From assembly GCF_963921235.1 (NCBI RefSeq), contig NC_086097.1:94862001-94926000 (forward strand): DNA of 64,000 bases. The letters run 5' to 3'. This DNA comes from Mobula hypostoma (taxonomy: Eukaryota). The translations under genes were made by a program, and so were the position numbers. Position 1 is the first letter of the stretch. The number at the start of each line of letters is the position of its first letter. Below are positions 21,589-51,783 of this stretch, piece by piece. The notes beneath the pieces are model-generated. The model did no database searches. It saw nothing but the letters and a program-made list of their open reading frames with translations, and was not told the origin of the DNA.

Positions 21589-21642
21589 ATGTCCACGAAA
21601 TTAGTCTCTTGTTTCTACGATATTGGAGAAGCTTTATGCAAG
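21589..21642 (+). CDS. ZFP36L1: ZFP36L1-like (Tis11b/BRF1) mRNA decay activator, coding exon 1 (MSTKLVSCFYDIGEALCK)
   Basis: ATG at 21589, 18 codons, then AAG|GTAAAA donor. The peptide resembles the short first coding exon of ZFP36L1/L2 (MTTTLVSATIFDLSEVLCK type). The phase-0 join is in frame with exon 2. Confidence 0.92.
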
Positions 21643-23394
21643 GTAAAAAAAAACAAACTTCGAATCGTGTCGGGTAGGGGAGGGAGGGTGTGGAAAGAAG
21701 TGGGCGCTATTATTAACAACACACTGCAGTTTTTAAACACTCCTCTTGTACCATTCAATCCAAACTTGTTTGAAATTTTGCAGTTGGAAAACGAGTCTGT
21801 TTTCGCAGAGCCTACGAAAACAAATCTTTATTCGGGTGTTTTAATTTTTTTTAAATGCCATCGGATTTTTAAAATTTCATTCCAGTGTTGGTGGAGTTTC
21901 TGCGACTTTGGATTTTCTGTTGGAAGAGCCAGTTGATAGAAGTTTTTTAAATTTTGTCTAACCCATTTCTGTGTCTCTGTGTTGAATTTTAACTCTAGTA
22001 GCTATAACATTGAATCCACTTCTATCTGACTCCCCCTCGCCAAACTGGCTATTTTGAGTTCAGGATCAAAACCTTTCACTCTGAAAAGAGTAATGTTGAC
22101 TTTGTGTCTGGAGGTTCTGATTTTGAACGTCGCTGGTCTGATTTTGAAACGTTGGCATTGTGATTTAGAACGTGCCCGTGTTCTGAATTGGAGCGTTCGA
22201 TTCCCGCCAGCTTCGTTCCCCATTGAGTGTCTGTCCGTCTTGTGAACGCGACTCGAGAGGGTCGACCGCCTCCTTGAAACCACCCCCGCCTTAGAGATAA
22301 GGGGCTGGCAACGGATCCCGCGGGCGGGGATCTACAAATACGACCCGAGCCACATGCGAGGACTCTCACTCACCCGCCTTAAATATGCGCTATACATTTT
22401 GGGTTTAATTGCGTACTTTTTTTTTGAGATGTTGCTACTTTATTTTGTTTGCTGGGAGGTGTGTGTGTGTCTTATTTTCGGATGGGGTTCTCGGGGCATT
22501 GGAGGGAGAGGGAGAAAGTCGGGAGGTAGAGGGATAGGGTGGGCGACCCTGGCTTGGTGATTGCAGGAGAGAGAACCTTAAATCTGTAATCAACAGGTTT
22601 AACAAAACCACAGTGGGGCTTTTATTATAGCTGCAGGGGGACTAATTGGTGTCTACTTCCGCCCTGTTAACTGCAGTCTGCTTCTTGCCTGCTAATGAAT
22701 GTAAACAATATTTTATCACATTTGATGTCAAATTCACCCAGCCTCTACTGGGGGCAGCACTCTTTCTAACTTGTCAAGGCCATCAGGCAAAGAGGAAGTA
22801 GGCAAGGGGCACTTTTGTTTTAAGAGGGTGAAACTGGATCAGGAATAGGTACCAGGGCAGTCTTGCAGGGAGGGACAGATGAGGCTGAATTCTACTGCAC
22901 CCTCCAACACTGTTGGCTCCTTGTGCCTTCTGCCCAATCACCTACAGGGCAGACCGAGGGACATGTTCAACACCACTGCCTGCTCGCCTCCAATGGGGTG
23001 GCAGGCCTGGCCTACAGTACCCTTCCACTGGACAATCCTGCCTCCATAACCCCCCCCCCCACTTTGATGAAGTCCTATGCTGGTTCTCTTCCCCTCCCCC
23101 CCCCCCCAAATCCTGTACCAGCAACCCCTTCACCCAGGTTCATGAGCAGATTTTATATGGGGCTCATCTTTGGCAATATTCAGCAGATACTCTGAGGCCT
23201 GTGCTGAACTGTTAAGTTCTTTCTCCACTTGGGACAGTTGGTGCAGTCCTAAAGGGAAGCTGGGAGCAGGGATAAGACTAAAGCTTGCATTGGGCACTTG
23301 GGCCGAAAGGCCTCGCTCTGTGTTTTGGTGCTGCACAAGGTCTCTAATATGATGTGTCATTTTTCTTCCCCTCGTTGACCTTGCCCATTTGCAG
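21643..23394 (+). other. ZFP36L1: Single GT-AG intron of the ZFP36L1-like gene (1752 nt)
   Basis: GTAAAA at 21643 and CAG ending at 23394; a single early intron is the known architecture of the ZFP36 family. Confidence 0.9.
22881..23134 (+). pseudogene. Decayed intronic duplicate of part of ZFP36L1 exon 2 (second finger to NPFT region)
   Basis: Collinear blocks: 23028-23065 vs 23992-24029 (30/38 identical, ungapped); 23113-23134 vs 24069-24090 (20/22); 22985-23020 vs about 23911-23949; 22895-22920 vs about 23796-23820. Confidence 0.8.
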
Positions 23395-24378
23395 AACAAG
23401 ATGATGAGCTACAACAGCAACACGGGGGTGCCCCTGCTGGACAGAAAAGCGGTCGGGACACCAACGCTGGTCGATTACCAGAGGCGGCATTCGGTCACCT
23501 TCGGCAACACTAACTCCAAGTTCACGCAGAACCAGCTCCTCAACAGCCTGAAGCTGGAGCAGACCGGCGGCGGGGGAGTGGCCAACAAGGAGAACAAGTT
23601 CCGTGACCGCTGCCTTTCGGAGACGGGCCTGCAGAAGCCCCAGGGCCAGGTGAACTCCAGCCGGTACAAGACGGAGCTGTGCCGCCCCTTCGAGGAGAAC
23701 GGCTCCTGCAAGTATGGCGACAAGTGCCAGTTTGCCCACGGCATCCACGAGCTGAGGAGCCTTGCGCGCCACCCCAAGTACAAGACGGAGCTGTGCCGCA
23801 CGTTCCACACCATCGGTTTCTGCCCCTACGGACCCCGCTGCCACTTCATCCACAACGCGGAGGAGCGGAGATTGTCACCCGCCCATGAGCAGCAGCACCA
23901 GCTCCCCCTGTCCTCCTCCAACAAGGTGGACAGGCCCTGCCTGCAGCACAGCTACAGTTTCTCCGGCTTCTCCAGTTCCTCCAACAGGCTGCTGGACAGT
24001 CCCACCTCCATCACCCCGCCGCCCATCTTCACCGCGGAAGAACTGAGCTCCTCCCCCACCCTGCCAAACTGCGCCAGCAACCCCTTCACCTACTCGAGCC
24101 AGGAGCTGGCCAGCCTCTTCGCGCCCAGCATTGGCATCCAGGTCCCCTTGGCGTCCACCGCTGGCACCACCGAGGGCAGCTCCCACTCCCCGACTTCGTT
24201 CCTGCTCCGGCCACTGGCCGAGTCGCCACAGTTCTTTGAGACTTCGCCCAGTCCCCCCGACTCGTTGTCCGATGATTGCCTCAGCAGCTCCGGCAGCATA
24301 AGCGGCTCGGAGTCGCCCATCCTTGACTTCAACAAGCGCCTCCCCATCTTCAGCAGACTCTCCATCACGGACGACTAG
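23395..24378 (+). CDS. ZFP36L1: ZFP36L1-like coding exon 2: Tis11B N-terminal region, tandem CCCH zinc fingers, C-terminal CNOT1-binding motif; spliced protein 345 aa
   Basis: Polypyrimidine tract plus TTTGCAG acceptor ending at 23394. Contains [10 protein letters not shown] and RRHSVT, then [31 protein letters not shown] and [30 protein letters not shown] (two CX8CX5CX3H fingers; EENG, GDK, GIHE and NAEE match L1 rather than L2). Ends [13 protein letters not shown] then TAG. Confidence 0.96.
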
Positions 24379-26335
24379 CTCAGTTCCTCCTGCCCCATCC
24401 CAAAGAGCCGAGGAGCTGTCAGCAGAAATGAAACGTAGCCCTAATCTGAACAAGCATTTAAGATGGACCTTTTATTCCTTAATGTACCAGTTAGCCAGCT
24501 TTTGACCCACTACCCAGGTTAGAATTGACTTGCCAGCTATGTACCATATCCGCTGATGACCTACAATGCAACTGTTGAATTTTTCACTGTGATCAGCAGG
24601 GGTACTGCACAATTAATTTAGCTCTTTCTGTTTTGTGTGATCAGAAATTCAGATTTTGGAAATGTTTGGTTTCCTGACGTGTCAGCAGTTTTGGGATTTG
24701 CAGAGCATGTTCGTCCCAGTGTAATCTGGTAGGCTTGGACTGCCCGGTCGGATCGGCCCAGTTGAGTTGAGGCACTTTGTTGGAAGAGTTTGACGTCAAA
24801 CAGCTGCCTACCTGCCGGACTGTAGAAGTTTGTGTGTTGTGTTAAAGAGCCGCACGGTGTAATTTCCCGTCGCTCACTGAGAGAGACTGTTGAAGTAGCA
24901 GAACCTAGATGTGATACCCCTTTGCTGTAACTTTTCTGTGCCCTCCCCACTGGAGCTGCTGTACCTGTCTGTGACAGAAGCCTCTCTACCCCCTGCCAGA
25001 GTGCCTTTGCACAGCTAAGTGGGGATGTGCCGATAAACATCCTACCCTGATGCCTTTGTGACCAGAAAATGAACCGGGTATCAGGACACCTCTACTCACT
25101 CACCCACCCTTACAAACCTCCCATTAGTAGCAACCCTGCTTACCTCATCCCTCACCCTGTTTCACCCTTCCTTCAGAGCCCTCCAATGACAATCCACCAA
25201 TACCGAGACTGAATTTGACAAGCATGGTGCTGATTGCCTCCATTATGGCAGCTGGGATTGACAGTGGCTGGTGACTTTCTATTGCGATTCTGGTTGGCTT
25301 GTTTCCGAGCACCCATTGGAGGAAACAAAACAACTGTAGCAATTAGCCATTTCTTTGTGTTGGGGAAGGGGACAGGGATAACTTCCTTGCAGGGGTTTAA
25401 AAAAAATAGTTGGATGGTCAGTATTCCAGCTTCCAAATGGGTGGGGAGGGGAAGGTGAGAGATACAATATAACCAAGCTAGTCCTTAGCTTTTGGCTTGT
25501 GCCAAGTTAATTCATTTTATTTCCTTCTTTTTATCTCCTTTTAAAAAAAGTTCCGCAGAACATTCAGAAAGGATTTAAAATATCGCTTGTCACTGCATTC
25601 ACTTACACATACACACAAAAAAATGCTTATTTAACTTATCAAAAACATATTTATTGCAAAACATATGCATTTTTGTTTGTATTTATCACAATGACGAACG
25701 ATAGAAATATATTTTTCTTTTATGTTTAAATTATGATCATTAATCTTAAAATTGTGAGGTTTTTCCTTTTCTTATTTTCGTTTTGACAGTTTAATATATT
25801 ATACTACAATGACGAGGGTTTTTGTAACTTTACTGTTCAGTTATTTTATTTAATAAAAAAGTAATTTAAAAACACAAAAACATTTTGAATTTATTTATTT
25901 TTTAGTTTCCCCTCCCTGCCCCCTTCCTTTCTAAGATAAAATAGTGTTTTTCTCATGTATTTTTATGTCAGCCTTGTGCTTACTGCCTTTTTGCTCTTGT
26001 TGCCAACGATGGCCTTTATTTTAGGATTTTGGGTCAGCTTCCACAATGCAAGAGAGTTAAGAAAATGCAGATTCAGTACTGTGACACAAAAGTGCCTGTT
26101 GAATACATTCCAAGCATCGATGTGTGCTTTCCATGTAATTAATACTTGTATTGATAGGTCCTGCCCTCTTTTAGAGAAAAACAAGCAGGACTTGGCACAA
26201 AGAGAAATTGAATGTATTTTTTTTCTCAGTTGTTCACTACATTTGTTTATTTTTAATGTCTGTTTATACAGAATGCTTTTGTAATGACTGGTTCTGATGT
26301 AAACCAATAAACCCCAATGTTCTTTTTCCAAAATG
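24379..26335 (+). promoter_or_regulatory. 3' UTR of ZFP36L1-like gene with AU-rich elements and two candidate poly(A) signals
   Basis: TATTTAT at 25648-25654 and 25680-25686; TTATTTATT at 25891-25899; AATAAA at 25852-25857 and 26306-26311; U-rich and repeat-free. Confidence 0.7.
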
Positions 26336-32515: not shown

Positions 32516-34262
32516 GAAAGACAGATGGAATCTCCCTTTGCTTAAGCTTCCACTTCTCAAACACTTATGTCACCTCTTTCTTCTTCCACTGCGATATATT
32601 CTGCACCCACAGAAGCTAAATATTGCTTGACCATTATTTGGTTGACTCATTTTTAATATTACAGAACCTCCTCCTCTGATTGGATGCCCTTCCTCTTTTT
32701 GGGATCTTTTGCATCTATTCCCAAAATGCGAACAGCTTCAGAAGCTGTGCTGGTACAGGGTGGAGAATACCCTGCTGCACTACTGTTCCCTTGGGGCTCT
32801 GATGTTCCTATCATTCATTCTATGGGGTTTCGTGTTTCGTGGATGTCTGTGAAGAGTACGAATTTCAGGTTGTACTCTGTATACATTCTCTGATATTAAA
32901 ATGAACCTTTGAGAGTCCGATAAAAAGGACGGTGACAATCAGCCACACAGAGGGCAAGGACTTGCACCTTTGTCCACTCAAACCTTGAGAGAGTTACTCA
33001 GGTGATGGGTGAGGGTCCTGATACAAGGAGAGAAGAATCAAGCCCATGATATTGATAACCGAAAAAATGGCGCGAAGCAGGGTTTCAAAGGAGAAGACGC
33101 TAAAACCAAAACAGAAACATTTGGAAACACAGCAGGTCAGACAGCATCTGAGGGCAGAGAAACAGGGTTATAGTTTTAGGTCTGAGACCCTTTGTCAGAA
33201 GTTGTCAAGCTGCAAGGTTAGGACGGGATGCTGCCGGGATAGGAGACCGTGTACTATAGAGAGAGATTGGACAAAGTAGGGTTTATTTTCTCTGGTGCGG
33301 TAGAGGCTAAGGGGTTACCTGATAGAAGTTTGTAAAATCATGTGATGCACAGGCAGAGCAGAGGGCTGCTATCTCCTTCCCAGGGTTGAAATATATAATA
33401 ATAAAGAACATGTATTTAAGGTGAAGGGGGAAAGTTCAAGTTTTTTTAAGAGTCGTATATGCTGTCAGGGGTGATTTTGGGGCAAATATGATAGAGACGT
33501 TTAAGAGTGTGTGAGTTGGAGGGATATGGACATTGTATAGGCAGAAGGAATTAGTTTAGTTAGGCAATTAATTACTAATTTAATTCATTTGACACATCCA
33601 GTACTGTACCGTTCTACGTTCTAGGATAGACTCCTTGGTGGGATTTCAGAGCTGGAGACCGAGGCAGCTGAAAGCACAGTGAAAGTCTGACTTACACAAG
33701 ACCTGAACTGGAGTAAGGTAAAGGTTTCAGAGGGGCTACAGAATGGGAGGGCATTACAGAGAATTAAAGACAAGGATGAAAATGTTACAAAACACTGAGG
33801 GTTCTTGGCAGGGAGGATATGAAAACAATGTTTCCTCTTTGAAAGAATTTAGAACAATGCTTCACTGTTTAGAAATAAGAGGCAGCCCATTAATGAGAGA
33901 TGAAGATCATAAGGTCATGAATCTTTGGAACTGTTTCTCAAAGAGCAATGGAAGCAGAGTTTGTGACTGAGGGGCCAGTGATTAGCTCCTCCTAATTCCT
34001 ATGTTTGTATAACCAAGCATTTTCTGTAATGGGATCCACCGCTGTCCGGTGAACACGAGCGATCGGTTCTGGTTGATGACCAGTGACAAGTGGTGTCCCA
34101 CGGGGATCAGTGTTGGGGCAGCTTCTTTTCACATTATTTGTCAATGATCTGCATGGTAGAATCAATGGCTTTGTGGCCAAGTTTGCATAGAATACGAAGA
34201 TACTGTGGGTGGAAGGATAGGTAGTGTTGAGGAAGCAAGAAGTCTGCAGAAGGACTTGGAGG

Positions 34263-35690
34263 GAGAGAGAAACCGGGGAATTATAGGCCGGTTAGCCTAA
34301 CGTCGGTGGTGGGGAAACTGCTGGAGTCAGTTATCAAGGATGTGATAACAGCACATTTGGAAAGCGGTGAAATGATCGGACAAAGTCAGCATGGATTTGT
34401 GAAAGGAAAATCATGTCTGATGAATCTCATAGAATTTTTTGAGGATGTAACTAGTAGAGTGGATAGGGGAGAACCAGTGGATGTGGTATATTTGGATTTT
34501 CAAAAGGTTTTTGACAAGGTCCCACACAGGAGATTAGTGTGCAAACTTAAAGCACACGGTATTGGGGGTAAGGTATTGGTGTGGGTGGAGAATTGGTTGG
34601 CAGACAGGAAGCAAAGAGTGGGAATAAACGGGACCTTTTCAGAATGGCAGGCGGTGACTAGTGGGGTACCGCAAGGCTCAGTGCTGGGACCCCAGTTGTT
34701 TACAATATATATTAATGACTTGGATGAGGGAATTAAATGCAGCATCTCCAAGTTTGCGGATGACACGAAGCTGGGTGGCAGTGTTAGCTGTGAGGAGGAT
34801 GCTAAGAGGATGCAGGGTGACTTGGATAGGTTGGGTGAGTGGGCAAATTCATGGCAGATGCAATTTAATGTGGATAAATGTGAAGTTATCCACTTTGGTG
34901 GCAAAAATAGGAAAACAGATTATTATCTGAATGGTGGCCGATTAGGAAAAGGGGAGGTGCAACAAGACCTGGGTGTCATTATACACCAGTCATTGAAAGT
35001 GGGCATGCAGGTACAGCAGGCGGTGTAAAAGGCGAATGGTATGCTGGCATTTATAGCGAGAGGATTCGAGTACAGGAGCAGGGAGGTACTACTGCAGTTG
35101 TACAAGGCCTTGGTGAGACCACACCTGGAGTATTGTGTGCAGTTTTGGTCCCCTAATCTGAGGAAAGACATCCTTGCCATAGAGGGAGTACAAAGATGGT
35201 TCACCAGATTGATTCCTGGGATGGCAGGACTTTCATATGAAGAAAGACTGGATGAACTGGGCTTGTACTCGTTGGAATTTAGAAGATTGAGGGGGGATCT
35301 GATTGAAACATATAAGATCCTAAAGGGATTGGACAGGCTAGATGCAGGAAGATTGTTCCCGATGTTGGGGAAGTCCAAAACGAGGGGCCACAGTTTGAGG
35401 ATAGAGGGGAAGCCTTTTAGGACCGAGATTAGGAAAAACTTCTCCACACAGAGAGTGGTGAATCTGTGGAATTCTCTGCCACAGGAAACAGTTGAGGCCA
35501 GTTCATTGGCTATATTTAAGAGGGAGTTAGATATGGCCCTTGTGGCTACGGGGGTCAGGGGGTATGGAGGGAAGGCTGGGGCGGGGTTCTGAGTTGGATG
35601 ATCAGTCATGATCATAATAAATGGCGGTGCAGGCTCGAAGGGCCGAATGGCCTACTCTTGCACCTATTTTCTATGTTTCTATGTTTCTAT
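34263..35690 (+). mobile_element. Young 5'-truncated CR1-clade LINE (RT plus C-terminus plus 3' UTR), inserted in an older CR1 (about 34070-37480)
   Basis: QHGFVKGKSC, YLDFQKVFDKVPH, GVPQGSVLGP, FADDTKLGG, VRPHLEYCVQFWSP; a single stop at 35026-35028; (TTTCTATG)n tail. Confidence 0.95.
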
Positions 35691-45023: not shown

Positions 45024-45666
45024 ATGTGCAAACTCATGTACTCAATGTCCTTATTATTGAAGGCCAGGCCAGTGTGCAAACTCCTAAACTCAATGTCCTT
45101 ATTAATGAAGGCCAGGCCAGTGTGTAAACTCCTAAACTCAATGTCCTTATTAATGAAGGCCAGGCCAGTGTCCAAACTCCTAAACTCGATGTCCTTATTA
45201 ATGAACTCCAGGCCAGTGTGCAAACTCCTAAACTCGATGTCCTTATTAATGAAGGCCAGGCCAGTGTCCAAACTCCTAAACTCAATGTCCATATTAATGA
45301 ACTCCAGGCCAGTGTGCAAACTCCTATACTCAATATCCTAATGAATGAAGGCCAGGCCAGTGTGCAATTTCCTACACACAATGCCCTAATTAATGAAGGC
45401 CAGCGTGCAAACTCCTATACTCATTTCCCTGACTGATGAAGTCCTGCATGCAAACTACAATACACAATGCACTGACTAATAAAGGCCAGGCCAGTGTGCA
45501 AACTCTAATACTTAATGCCCTAACTAATGAAGGCTGGTATTGAAACTCCAATACTCGATACACTGACTAATGAAGGTCTGTGTGCAAACTCCTATACTCA
45601 ATGCCCTGACTAATGAAAGCCAGGCCAGGGTGGAAACTCTTATACCCAATGCCCTGACCAATGAAG
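45024..45666. repeat. 48-bp minisatellite, block 1 (CR1 ORF2-derived)
   Basis: Unit AATGAAGGCCAGGCCAGTGTGCAAACTCCTAAACTCAATGTCCTTATT; minus-strand translation repeats HTGLAFINKDIEFRSL. Confidence 0.92.
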
Positions 45667-48600
45667 CATGTCAACATCAGTGAGTTAGATTGGCGGGAAG
45701 AATTTAAAAGGAAGATGGCTTTATAGAGCAGGTGTTAGAGTAGAGGGGGACAGAGTAAGAGGGCTTTGGCTCAACAGGGTGAGGCGAGGTACGTTACTTG
45801 TGTAGAATAGAAACAGGAAGTATGTGTGTGAGGCCGGTGTTCTGTACTGGGAGTCAGATGTGGGATCTCTGGGGGACTCCCGGCCTCCCGGACAGCCACA
45901 TCTGCGCCAGGTGCGTCAAGCTGCAGCTCCTTAGGGACCATGTTAGGGAACTGGAGCTGCAGCTCGATGACCTTCGTCTGGTCAGGGAGAGTGAGGAGTT
46001 GATAGAGAGGAGCTATAGGCAGGTAGTCACACTGGAGCCTCGGGAGACAGATGAGCAGGTAACAGTCAGGAGAGGGAAGAGCAAGAGTCAGATACTGGAG
46101 AGTACCCCTGTGGCTGTACCCCTTAACAATAAGTACTCCTGTTTGAGTACTGTTGGGTGGGGGTGGGGAACAGCCTACTTGGGGGAAGCAGCAGCGGCCG
46201 TGCCTCTGGCACACAGTCTGGCCCTGTGGCTCAGAAGGGTAGGGAAAGGAAGAGGATGGCAGCAGTGATAGGGGACTCTATAGTTAGGGGGTCAGACTGG
46301 CGATTCTGTGGATGCAGGAAAGAAGCACAGATGGTAGTTTGCCTCCCAGGTGCCAGGGTCCGGGATGTATCTGATCGCGTCCACAATATCCTGAAGTGGG
46401 AATGTGAAATGCCAGAGGTCGTGGTACACATTGGTACCAACGACATAAGTAGGAAAAGGGAGGAGGTCCTGAAAACAGACGACAGGGAGTTGGGAAGGAA
46501 ACTGAGAAGCAGGACCTCAAAGGTAGTAATCTCGGGATTACTGCCTGTGCTACGAGACAGTGAGTATAGGAATAGCGTGAAGTGGAGGATAAATGTGTGG
46601 CTGAAGGACTGGAGCAGGGGGCAGGGATTCAGATTTCTGGATCATTGGGACCTCTTTTGGGAACGGTGTGCACTTGAATCCGAGAGGAACCAATATCCTG
46701 GCAGGGAGGTTTGCTAAGGCTATTGGGGAGAGTTTAAACTAGAATCGCTGGGGGGTGGGAACCAAACTGAAGAGATGGAGGAAGGGGTGGTTGGCTCACT
46801 AATAGAGAAAGCTTGGAGACAGTGCAAGAGGGAGGATAGGCAGGTGATAGAGAAGGGATGCGCTCAGACCAATGGTTTGAGATGTGTCTATTTTAATGCA
46901 AGAAGCATCATGAACAAGGCAGATGAGCTTAGAGCCTGGATCAGTACTTGGAGCTATGATCTTGTGCCCAATACAGAGAACTGGAAGGCTCAGGGACAGG
47001 AACGGTTACTTAGAGTGCCAGGCTTTAGATGTTTCAGGAAGGACAGGGAGGGAGGCAAAAGAGGTGGGTGTGTGGCACTGCTGGTCAGAGATAATGTCAC
47101 GGCTGCAGAAAAGGAGGAAGTCATGAGAGGATTGTTTATGGAGTCTCTATGGGTGGAAGTTAGGAATAGGAAGGGGTCAATAACTCTACTGGGTGTTTTT
47201 TATAGTCCACCCAATAGTAACAGGGCCATCGAGGAGCGGATAGGGAGACAGATTCTGGAAAGGTGTAATAATAACAGGGTTGTTGGGGAAGGAGATTTTA
47301 ATTTCCCAAATATTAATTGGCATCTCCCTAGTGCAAGGGGTTTAGATGGGGTAGAGTTTGTTAGGTGTGTTCAAGAAGGTTTCTTGACACAATATGCAGA
47401 TAAGCCTACAAGAGGAGAGGCTGTACTTGATCTGGTATTGGGAAATGAACCTGGTCAGGTGTCAGATCTCTCAGTGGGAGAGCATTTTGGAGATAGTGAT
47501 CACAATTTTATCTCCTTTACCACAGCATTGGAGAGGGATAGGAACGGACAAGTTAGGAAAGCGTTCAATTGGAGTAAGGGAAAATATGACGCTATCAGGC
47601 AGGAACTTGGAAGCAGAAATTGGGAACAGATGTTCTCAGGGAAATGTACGGAAGAAATGTGGCAAATGTTCAGGGGATATTTGTGTGGAGTTCTGCAGCA
47701 TCATTGTAGACCCATCACACCCTGGACATCACCTGTTCCGACTCCTTCCTTCTGGTAGACGCTTTAGATCACTGTATGCCAGGACAAATAGGTACAAGAA
47801 CAGTTTCTTTCCGTATGCCATCAGTTTTATGAACACTTGAATTTTAGTCTATTATAAACCAAGTCCACCTGTACATACACAGGTATACCTCATTGTATAT
47901 AGTTCATGATTATTTGCACTATTGTTTTGTTTGCTTTTTGATTCTGTACAGCGAGAGCTCAGGGAAACCAGCATCAAATTCCTAGTATGTGTCCATGTAC
48001 TTGGCGGTAATAAAGGATTCTGATTCTGATAGGTATGTTCCAATGAGACAGAGAAAGGATGGTAGGGTACAGGAACCGTGGTGTATAAAGGCTGTTGTAA
48101 ATCTAGTCGAAAAGAAAAGAGAGCTTACGAAAGGTTCAAAAACTAGGTAATGGTAGAGATCTATAAGATTATAAGGCTAGCAGGAAGGAGCTTAAGAATG
48201 AAAATAGGAGATCCAGAAGGGGCCATGAGAAGGCCTTGGTGGACAGGATTAAGGAAAACCTCAAGGCATTCTACAAGTATGTGAAGAGCAAGAGGATAAG
48301 ACATGAGAGAATAGGACCAATCAAGTGTGACAGTGGAATAGTGTGTATGGAACCTGAGGAGATAGCAGAGGTACTTAATGAATACTTTGCTTCAGTATTC
48401 ACTACAGAAAAGGATCTTGGTGATTGTAGGGATGAATTACAGCAGATTGAAAAGCTTGAGCATATAGACATTAAGGAAGAGGATGTGCTGGAGCTTTGGA
48501 AAGCATCAAGTTGATAAGTCTCTGGGACTGGACAAGATATACCCCAGGCTATTGTGGGAGGTGAGGGAGGAGATTGCTGAACCACTGGCAATGATCTTAG

Positions 48601-49368: not shown

Positions 49369-49795
49369 ATGAAGGCTAGGCAAGTGTGCAAACTCCTATC
49401 CTGAATGTCCAGACTAATGAAGGCCAGAACAGTGTGCAAACTCCTAAAGTCAATACACTGACTATTGAAGACCAGGCCAGTGTGCAATCTCCTGTACACA
49501 ATGCCTTGACTGATAAAGGGCTGACCAGGGTGCAAACTTCAATGCTAAACGCCCTGACTAATAATGGCCAACCCAGAGTGCAAAATCCAATACGCAATGG
49601 CCTGACAAGTGAAGGCCGGTGTGCAAACTCCTATTCTCAATGCCCTGTAAAATGAAGACCAAGCCAGTGAGCAAACACCTATTCTCAGTGCCCTGACTAA
49701 TGAAGGCCAGGCGAGCGTGCAATCTCCCGTATACAATGCCTTAACTGATAAAGGGCTGGCCAGGGTGCAAACTCCTATACTCAAAGCCCTGAATG
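49369..49795. repeat. 48-bp minisatellite, block 2
   Basis: Degenerate units of the same repeat (AATGAAGGCCAG...GTGCAAACTCCTA...AATGCCCTGACT). Confidence 0.88.
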
Positions 49796-51182: not shown

Positions 51183-51783
51183 GAAGCTACAATACCCAAT
51201 GCCCTGACTAATGAAGGGCAGTCTGCAAACTCCTATACTCAGTACCCTGATAATGAAGGCCAGGACAGTCTGCGGTCTCCTAAAGTCAATACACTGACTA
51301 TTGAATGACAGGCCAGTGTGCAAACTCCTGTAGATAATGCCTTGATTCATAAAGGGCAGGGCAGGATGCAAACTCCTATACTCATTGCCCTGACTAATGA
51401 AGGCCAGGCCAATGTGGAAACTCCTGTACCAAATTTTCTGACCAATGAAGGCCAAGTAAGTGTGCAAACTCCTATCCTCAATGCCCTGATAAGAAGGCTA
51501 GTGTGCAAATTTCTACACTCAATGTGCTGACTAATGAAGGCCAGTCTGCAAACTCCTAATACAAAATGCCCTGACTAATGAACTGAGGCCAGTATGGAAA
51601 CTCCTATACTCAATGCCCTGATGGATGGACAGGCCAGTGTGGAAACTCCTTTACTCAATGCCCTGGCTAATAAAGACCAGTGTGCAAACTCCTATGTTCA
51701 GTACACTGACAAGGGAAGGCCAGGCAATACCTTGACTAATGAAGGCTAGGCCAGTGTACAAACACCAATACTTAGCGCCCTGA
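51183..51783. repeat. 48-bp minisatellite, block 3, followed by (CA)n to about 51893
   Basis: Same degenerate unit as blocks 1 and 2. Confidence 0.88.

Follow-up and report, generated by a model that had tools for sequence, protein, structure and literature searches.

A decayed copy of part of its own exon 2 in the single intron of ZFP36L1 in the ray Mobula hypostoma

That a piece of an exon can be copied locally into an intron is already known, and the relic reported here belongs to this described class. According to the accessible text of Pace et al. (2009, PMC2671141), the repair-mediated duplications (RDs) of that study lie within annotated transposons and have empty sites in outgroups; most of them come from primates and are of high identity. 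In the same accessible text, 824 human cases lie within 5 kb, with an apparent peak near 1.2 kb; the mean length is 162 bp and the maximum 619 bp, poly(A) was seen in 0 of the 39 inspected cases, and in one case an entire exon was copied to an intron of the gene it belongs to, with no coding constraint thereafter. Partial intragenic duplicates and tandem exon duplications, as described in the accessible part of PMC3449122, resemble our locus in that part of a gene is duplicated within the gene and in the same orientation. Class 2 of the templated sequence insertion polymorphisms (PMC5110952, accessible part) consists of templated patches of DNA where a break is presumed, and the retro-derived Zfp36l3 and zfp36l4 (PMC3546996, accessible part) are also ZFP36-family sequence copied within the genome. 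Finally, the chimeric or templated LINE insertions presented in the accessible portions of PMC13174262, PMC11702581 and bioRxiv 2024.08.27.596794 likewise carry a host fragment 5' of a same-strand retroposon tail.

The single intron of ZFP36L1 in Mobula hypostoma carries a worn copy, 170 to 260 bases long, of the middle of exon 2 of the same gene, in the same orientation. Compared with the RDs, this relic is far more decayed, it is found in a ray and its breakpoints are unreadable. Unlike tandem exon duplications, it is an internal exon piece with a broken frame and with no detectable splice site copied. The insertions of PMC5110952 have distant templates and are polymorphic, as far as its accessible text goes, whereas the relic is local and old; Zfp36l3 and zfp36l4 are, in the accessible text of PMC3546996, whole genes at other loci, whereas the relic is a broken fragment inside its parent. 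The relic was not found in titles or abstracts among the matches listed for ZFP36L1 introns and sharks, for the evolution of the family and for decayed intragenic copies, a coverage that mostly excludes subscription journals, and the accessible part of PMC8484758 contains nothing on the ZFP36L1 intron.

The host gene is a two-exon ZFP36L1 with its ATG at position 21589 of the window, i.e. of the whole 64 kb stretch of DNA analysed; the exons, the intron, the relic and its donor segment, the real and the proposed acceptor, the stop-free frame and the intronic retroposon tail are on its forward strand. The coding part of exon 1 (21589..21642), 18 codons matched to the N-terminus of the protein P0001, is followed by a phase-0 donor at 21643, by the single intron (21643..23394; 1752 bp, GT..AG, phase 0) and by the intact coding part of exon 2 (23395..24378), with the Tis11B_N domain and two zf-CCCH domains. 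The protein encoded by exon 2 has 100% identity with a record that bears the name Mobula hypostoma ZFP36L1-like X1, and a 325-aa short form is listed as product of the window. A two-exon, phase-0 structure is the conserved norm in the ZFP36 family, according to the accessible text of PMC3546996. The real 3' splice region (23344..23394) contains branch-like motifs at 23344 and 23375, a pyrimidine tract and the AG at 23393-23394. The 5' half of the intron is CpG-rich and the sequence from about 22560 to 23300 is CpG-poor. Among 24 sequencing-run entries listed for a 4.5-kb stretch, 20, from 7 studies, contain all or part of it, with no RNA run among the listed holders.

Several other features of the gene were recorded. 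Four 17-nt direct repeats with a spacing of 21-23 nt lie at 22114-22196, in the CpG-rich half of the intron, and could form a factor-binding array of an internal promoter; Tandem Repeats Finder called no repeat inside ZFP36L1. Just 3' of the CpG-rich intronic stretch, a donor-like site at 22459 (within 22456-22464) agrees with the consensus at 7 of 9 positions and ties the real donor; since shark, ray and chimaera annotations include X2 forms that begin with the methionine of exon 2, this site may mark the end of an alternative first exon. The CpG-poor gap of about 740 bp (22560-23300) separates the CpG-rich promoter-intron from the CpG-rich coding exon; the relic accounts for only one third of it and the remainder matched no source. 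In exon 2, the motif that precedes the first zinc finger (P0001 residues 88-94) lies in a known phosphorylation region of ZFP36L1 and contains, in each of the two Mobula species, a cysteine where the remaining rays and the sharks and bony vertebrates in the comparison have serine. The 3' UTR (25648-25898, 25852, 26306) holds three AU-rich heptamers and two AATAAA signals, features to be expected in a self-regulated member of this family.

The core of the relic (22968..23136) is certainly homologous to exon 2. It is a decayed copy of 23896-24092, from the post-finger linker to SNPFT, at offsets of 928 to 968 and with deletions; a decayed copy of exon 2 with deletions had been noticed in the preliminary description of this DNA. 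BLASTN of the intron against exon 2 returned two collinear matches (E 3e-6 and 1e-4). In the local alignment with shuffled controls which that description had proposed as a check, gapped alignment of the intron to the CDS paired 22968-23136 with 23896-24092 at a significant score of 455, when the shuffle maxima were 181 (global), 225 (50-nt) and 253 (25-nt dinucleotide), none of the 200 shuffles of each kind reaching 455; two further scoring schemes for the intron-CDS local alignment again gave 0/200. A pair-HMM aligned relic and donor at 61.5 bits, against at most 2.8 bits for 30 local shuffles. Similarity by chance was rejected as an explanation. An ungapped run of 30 identities in 38 positions, claimed beforehand, does exist, from 23028 at offset 964, and so does the 17-nt exact match (23118-23134 = 24074-24090), which is found twice in the window.

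The 5' limit is less firm. Seven blocks of the intron were tested against parts of the gene with 200 shuffles each; the linker block was matched by 0/200 shuffles and the finger-2 block (22876-22955), taken alone, by 4/200, with a posterior of 0.4-0.7, and part of the latter block has a second possible alignment. The segment 22881..22967, which would derive from zinc finger 2 and the first part of the linker (offsets 901-908, beginning at 23782 of the donor), thus belongs to the relic only probably, as a weak 5' extension, and the donor segment inside exon 2 then runs from finger 2 to SNPFT (23782..24092). The copy initially delimited at 22881..23134 is therefore secure in its core and weak at its finger-2 start. 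At the other end, a 3' extension to 23195, plausible by eye, failed the block test (97/200). A loose alignment covering 22543-23394 was set aside as an over-extension, its flanks failing the block tests, and a weak match between the left flank and 5972-6100 (E 0.14) was not confirmed in a later check. The relic is unique in the window: 121 of 122 tiles gave at most 1.1 bits and the remaining tile holds part of the donor.

Decay is visible even in the best columns, where the two copies differ at 20 of 108 positions, and an assembly duplicate was rejected on this ground. The 20 mismatches in these confidently aligned columns comprise 15 transitions and 5 transversions, and 4 of the 6 CpG positions among them are changed in the relic. 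The loss of CpG reported earlier was confirmed: the relic contains 2 CpG and the donor 16. By codon position, mismatches number 7/37, 4/36 and 9/35, counts of low power that concern well-aligned columns only; at that low power, the pattern fits an absence of coding constraint. The relic frame departs from the donor frame, through frameshifts, in 3 of 6 blocks. Alternative exons can originate by exon duplication; here neither a copy of the acceptor nor a conserved donor frame with mostly synonymous differences was found.

The donor is ZFP36L1 and not ZFP36L2. Protein-only profiles of eight cartilaginous-fish ZFP36L1 scored 32.2-48.0 bits on the relic, those of four chondrichthyan ZFP36L2 only 4.4-14.3 bits (9.5 for the L2 of the same species), and a paralogue donor was rejected on this difference; the only other paralogue in the comparison was TTP, represented by one lizard record (-3.3 bits). 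To date the copy, the codons of the ray donor were changed in silico to the residues of 16 other species, the codons being inferred, and the relic was rescored. The donor state of the sawfish Pristis was the best of the 16 tried, gaining 6.4 bits over the present ray gene. Gains were also obtained with the states of Narcine (2.6), Heptranchias (2.3) and Leucoraja (1.0 bits), and the remaining twelve species states lost, including Hypanus (-3.6) and Callorhinchus (-9.3 bits). The Pristis gain was positive in all five parameter sets (4.4-7.1 bits), and only 1 of 1000 random controls with seven changes and one codon deletion reached 6.4 bits.

By site, the Pristis gain comes from E234D (+3.5), Q187H (+1.3) and the loss of Q184 (+0.9 bits), and at these three sites Mobula and Hypanus have the derived state in common. 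The ray residue V196 is favoured over the shark M or I by 2.4-4.6 bits, and one site is contrary, N243, found only in Mobula among the species compared, which beats S by 1.8 bits. The sawfish-state donor also changes the alignment: the segment 22959-22976, which against the present gene is either finger-2 start or linker (posteriors 0.53 and 0.29), becomes linker at a posterior of 0.94, and the mean posterior of 22881-22940 rises from 0.21 to 0.66. Since the relic fits the sawfish state better than the present gene, the copy probably predates the stingray-order changes, and the copying would date to early rays, after the ray-specific and before the stingray-order amino-acid changes, as judged from three or four sites with N243 contrary. 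Sawfishes and stingrays are sister orders in the accessible text of bioRxiv 2025.08.19.671162, and 159 My is a preliminary calibration for the sawfish order in that of PMC10671267. Taken together with the relic being probably older than the stingray-order changes, these two points make a Mesozoic age likely. Substitution is slow in sharks and rays, which would let a neutral copy stay recognisable.

We consider it very probable that the relic is a neutral local relic, whatever the mechanism that made it, and, with less assurance, we favour repair-mediated copying as that mechanism. On this reading, a DNA break would have occurred once in the ZFP36L1 intron of an early ray and would have been patched by copying about 300 bases from exon 2, 0.9 kb away, by synthesis-dependent strand annealing or a similar template switch. 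The inserted copy would then have been tolerated, because no splice site was detectably copied and splicing from 21642 to 23395 was left undisturbed, and has probably decayed without use. The relic measures 169 bp for its core and 256 bp with the weak extension, and 645 bp separate its end at 23136 from the donor start at 23782, with offsets of 901-968; size and distance fit those of repair-mediated duplications (more than 50 bp, less than 5 kb; 50-619 bp). No poly(A/T) of at least 5 bases stands next to either apparent end, these ends being blurred and age being able to erase such a tract. We liken the relic to the RDs, as something that would work in the same way, by length, distance and orientation, its breakpoints being too blurred to read. 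With the traces of a head-to-tail duplication and of ordinary retroposition missing, the relic is left as a short, interspersed copy on the strand of its donor, taken from 0.9 kb away. An old local tandem duplication or retro-insertion had been proposed at the outset; the old local duplicate of the gene's own exon 2 stands, the simple tandem duplication lacks its predicted traces and the retro-insertion is disfavoured.

The best surviving rival, although unlikely, is a tandem duplication of the 3' end of the intron with most of exon 2 (about 0.9-1 kb), likewise neutral, in which the acceptor and finger 1 of the upstream copy were later deleted or replaced. The same orientation and the collinear offsets of 901 to 968 are as it predicts, the 3' flank is faintly like later exon 2 in one of the seven block tests (8/200), and the CpG-poor zone of about 740 bp exceeds the recognisable relic. 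However, the approximately 390 bp expected before the relic were not detected (5' flank against the exon 2 start, 110/200), and neither was finger 1 or a duplicated intron piece (3' flank against upstream intron, 46/200). A copy of the real acceptor at the site proposed as an alternative acceptor (see below) was not detected either: 715 of 1000 shuffles score as high, and the posterior is 0.0 even when very long deletions are allowed. By eye, 22861-22890 resembles the real acceptor and the beginning of exon 2, a resemblance that did not hold up when tested. The tandem reading must thus assume extra deletions.

Retroposition enters the question in two forms. A canonical retro-insertion or processed pseudogene is disfavoured, the relic being internal to the CDS, with no 3' UTR, poly(A) or exon-1 sequence detectable in it (64/200 for exon 1). 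The second form starts from a 53-base fragment (23299..23351) of the 3' tail that an interspersed family of retroposons (LINE/SINE) has in common; it lies 162 bp downstream of the relic and contradicts the earlier description of the gene as otherwise TE-free. The 15-nt tail motif occurs 16 times in the window where 0.28 are expected, with one exact match in the intron. A profile of five other tail copies aligns over 23299-23351 at 14.7 bits, a score reached by 0/300 shuffled introns, and 3 of 4 profiles recovered the site; this test is partly circular because the motif was chosen with the intron site already known, but the alignment extends well past the motif.

A LINE reverse transcriptase could accordingly have switched from the tail to ZFP36L1 RNA or nearby DNA, inserting 22881-23351 as a chimera, a course of events that we hold to be quite improbable. 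Relic and tail are on the same strand and in the order of 5' fragment then 3' tail, and chimeric as well as locally templated insertions are described for L1 in the accessible parts of the three LINE studies cited above. But 162 unexplained bases lie between fragment and tail, and this spacer is unlike exon 2 (97/200) and unlike 15 repeat-copy bodies (best 0.7 bits), which did not match the flanks of the relic either. L1 templates typically lie within 15 bp of the site, according to the same accessible texts, and not at 650-900 bp. No target-site duplication was seen among the 20 largest of 21 direct-repeat families, a trace that would be lost at such divergence. Moreover, with 16 occurrences of the tail motif in 64 kb, its presence beside the relic by chance is unremarkable.

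Other repeats of the window include a broken reverse-transcriptase ORF (34231-35589; RVT_1, E 5e-33), presumably CR1-like from its appearance, in a segment (34231-35660) closed by the shared tail motif, and a LINE remnant at 46133-47755 whose first ORF is GDSL-esterase-like and whose next ORF encodes an endonuclease. The accessible part of PMC5499810 gave no name for the tail family. Three arrays (45025-45666, 49369-49792 and 51192-51725) are built of one 48-bp tandem unit. At 5515-5672, a young retroposon end, truncated, 106 bp long and sharing 96% identity with the one at 35639, lies directly upstream of an older tail of the related family.

Present-day function of the relic is unlikely, as far as its sequence can tell. 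The relic might serve as an alternative acceptor, yielding a 126-aa product that lacks the fingers, as a 269-nt frameshifting cassette (110 aa) or as a regulatory element, and we give these uses together a very small chance, slightly below that of the chimera. A used acceptor or cassette would, we propose, damp the output of ZFP36L1. The proposed acceptor, TCTTGCAG at 22861..22868, is indeed in frame with exon 1 and open to the TGA at 23193-23195, which would give the 126-aa product; a finger-less product had been announced by the preliminary description. SNPFT falls outside the frame of this product. The stop-free frame (22869..23195) runs for 108 codons across the relic; only 65 of 2000 shuffles (3.3%) are likewise open from the proposed AG, which mildly favours a functional reading. 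A frame of 123 codons somewhere in the region arises in 252 of 2000 shuffles, and the source of the relic is itself stop-free, GC-rich coding DNA. A GT at 23138, which agrees with the donor consensus at 6 of 9 positions, could close a cassette, the relic is still recognisable although probably old, and alternative 5' isoforms are annotated in sharks and rays, which makes the intron a site of transcript variation.

Against use, the splice signals at the proposed AG are weak. It has 8 pyrimidines out of 20 and ranks 74th of 95 intronic AGs. A further AG precedes it by 8 nt, and the interval 12-50 nt upstream lacks a YTNAY motif, whereas the real acceptor ranks 5th of 95, with 15 pyrimidines out of 20 and two branch-like motifs; by likeness to the real junction, the proposed site ranks 63rd of 92. 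The alternative acceptor thus keeps its open frame and lacks the signals of a good splice site. The frame is foreign to the donor in half of the blocks (3/6), none of 17 candidate proteins of 59-189 aa matched it at E up to 10, and Pfam gave no match for the enclosing 123-aa frame. All members of the ray protein cluster (7/7) are 345 or 325 aa long, Rfam found nothing anywhere in the window, and the folding of the relic is ordinary (z 0.37). The neutral relic is the best of the three functional options first put forward.

A bolder combination is as doubtful as present-day use: the relic would be a Mesozoic fossil of the ancestral ray linker, kept across ray orders by co-option, either as a weak acceptor or cassette diverting the immediate-early transcript to a finger-less product or as a control element of the intron, and possibly made from the nascent RNA of the gene itself through a retroposon template switch. 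Least probable of all, and hardly credible, is a multi-copy mobile element that carries the fragment as a host-derived module and has one of its copies in the parent gene by chance. A retroposon tail is nearby, but there is no second copy within 64 kb, no look-alike in the index searched (where short DNA is detected only near 90% identity), and a chance landing 0.9 kb from the donor is improbable.

As a neutral relic, the favoured reading, the copy matters little and has modest value as a marker. Ancestral residues that the functional gene no longer has seem to be preserved in it, and whether skates, electric rays, sawfishes and stingrays have the copy or lack it would give ray phylogeny a rare genomic character. 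If the relic were used or conserved, it would be a self-derived splice or regulatory switch in a family with an ancient, fixed two-exon structure, and such a switch, if true, would be of interest for the control of the tristetraprolin family.
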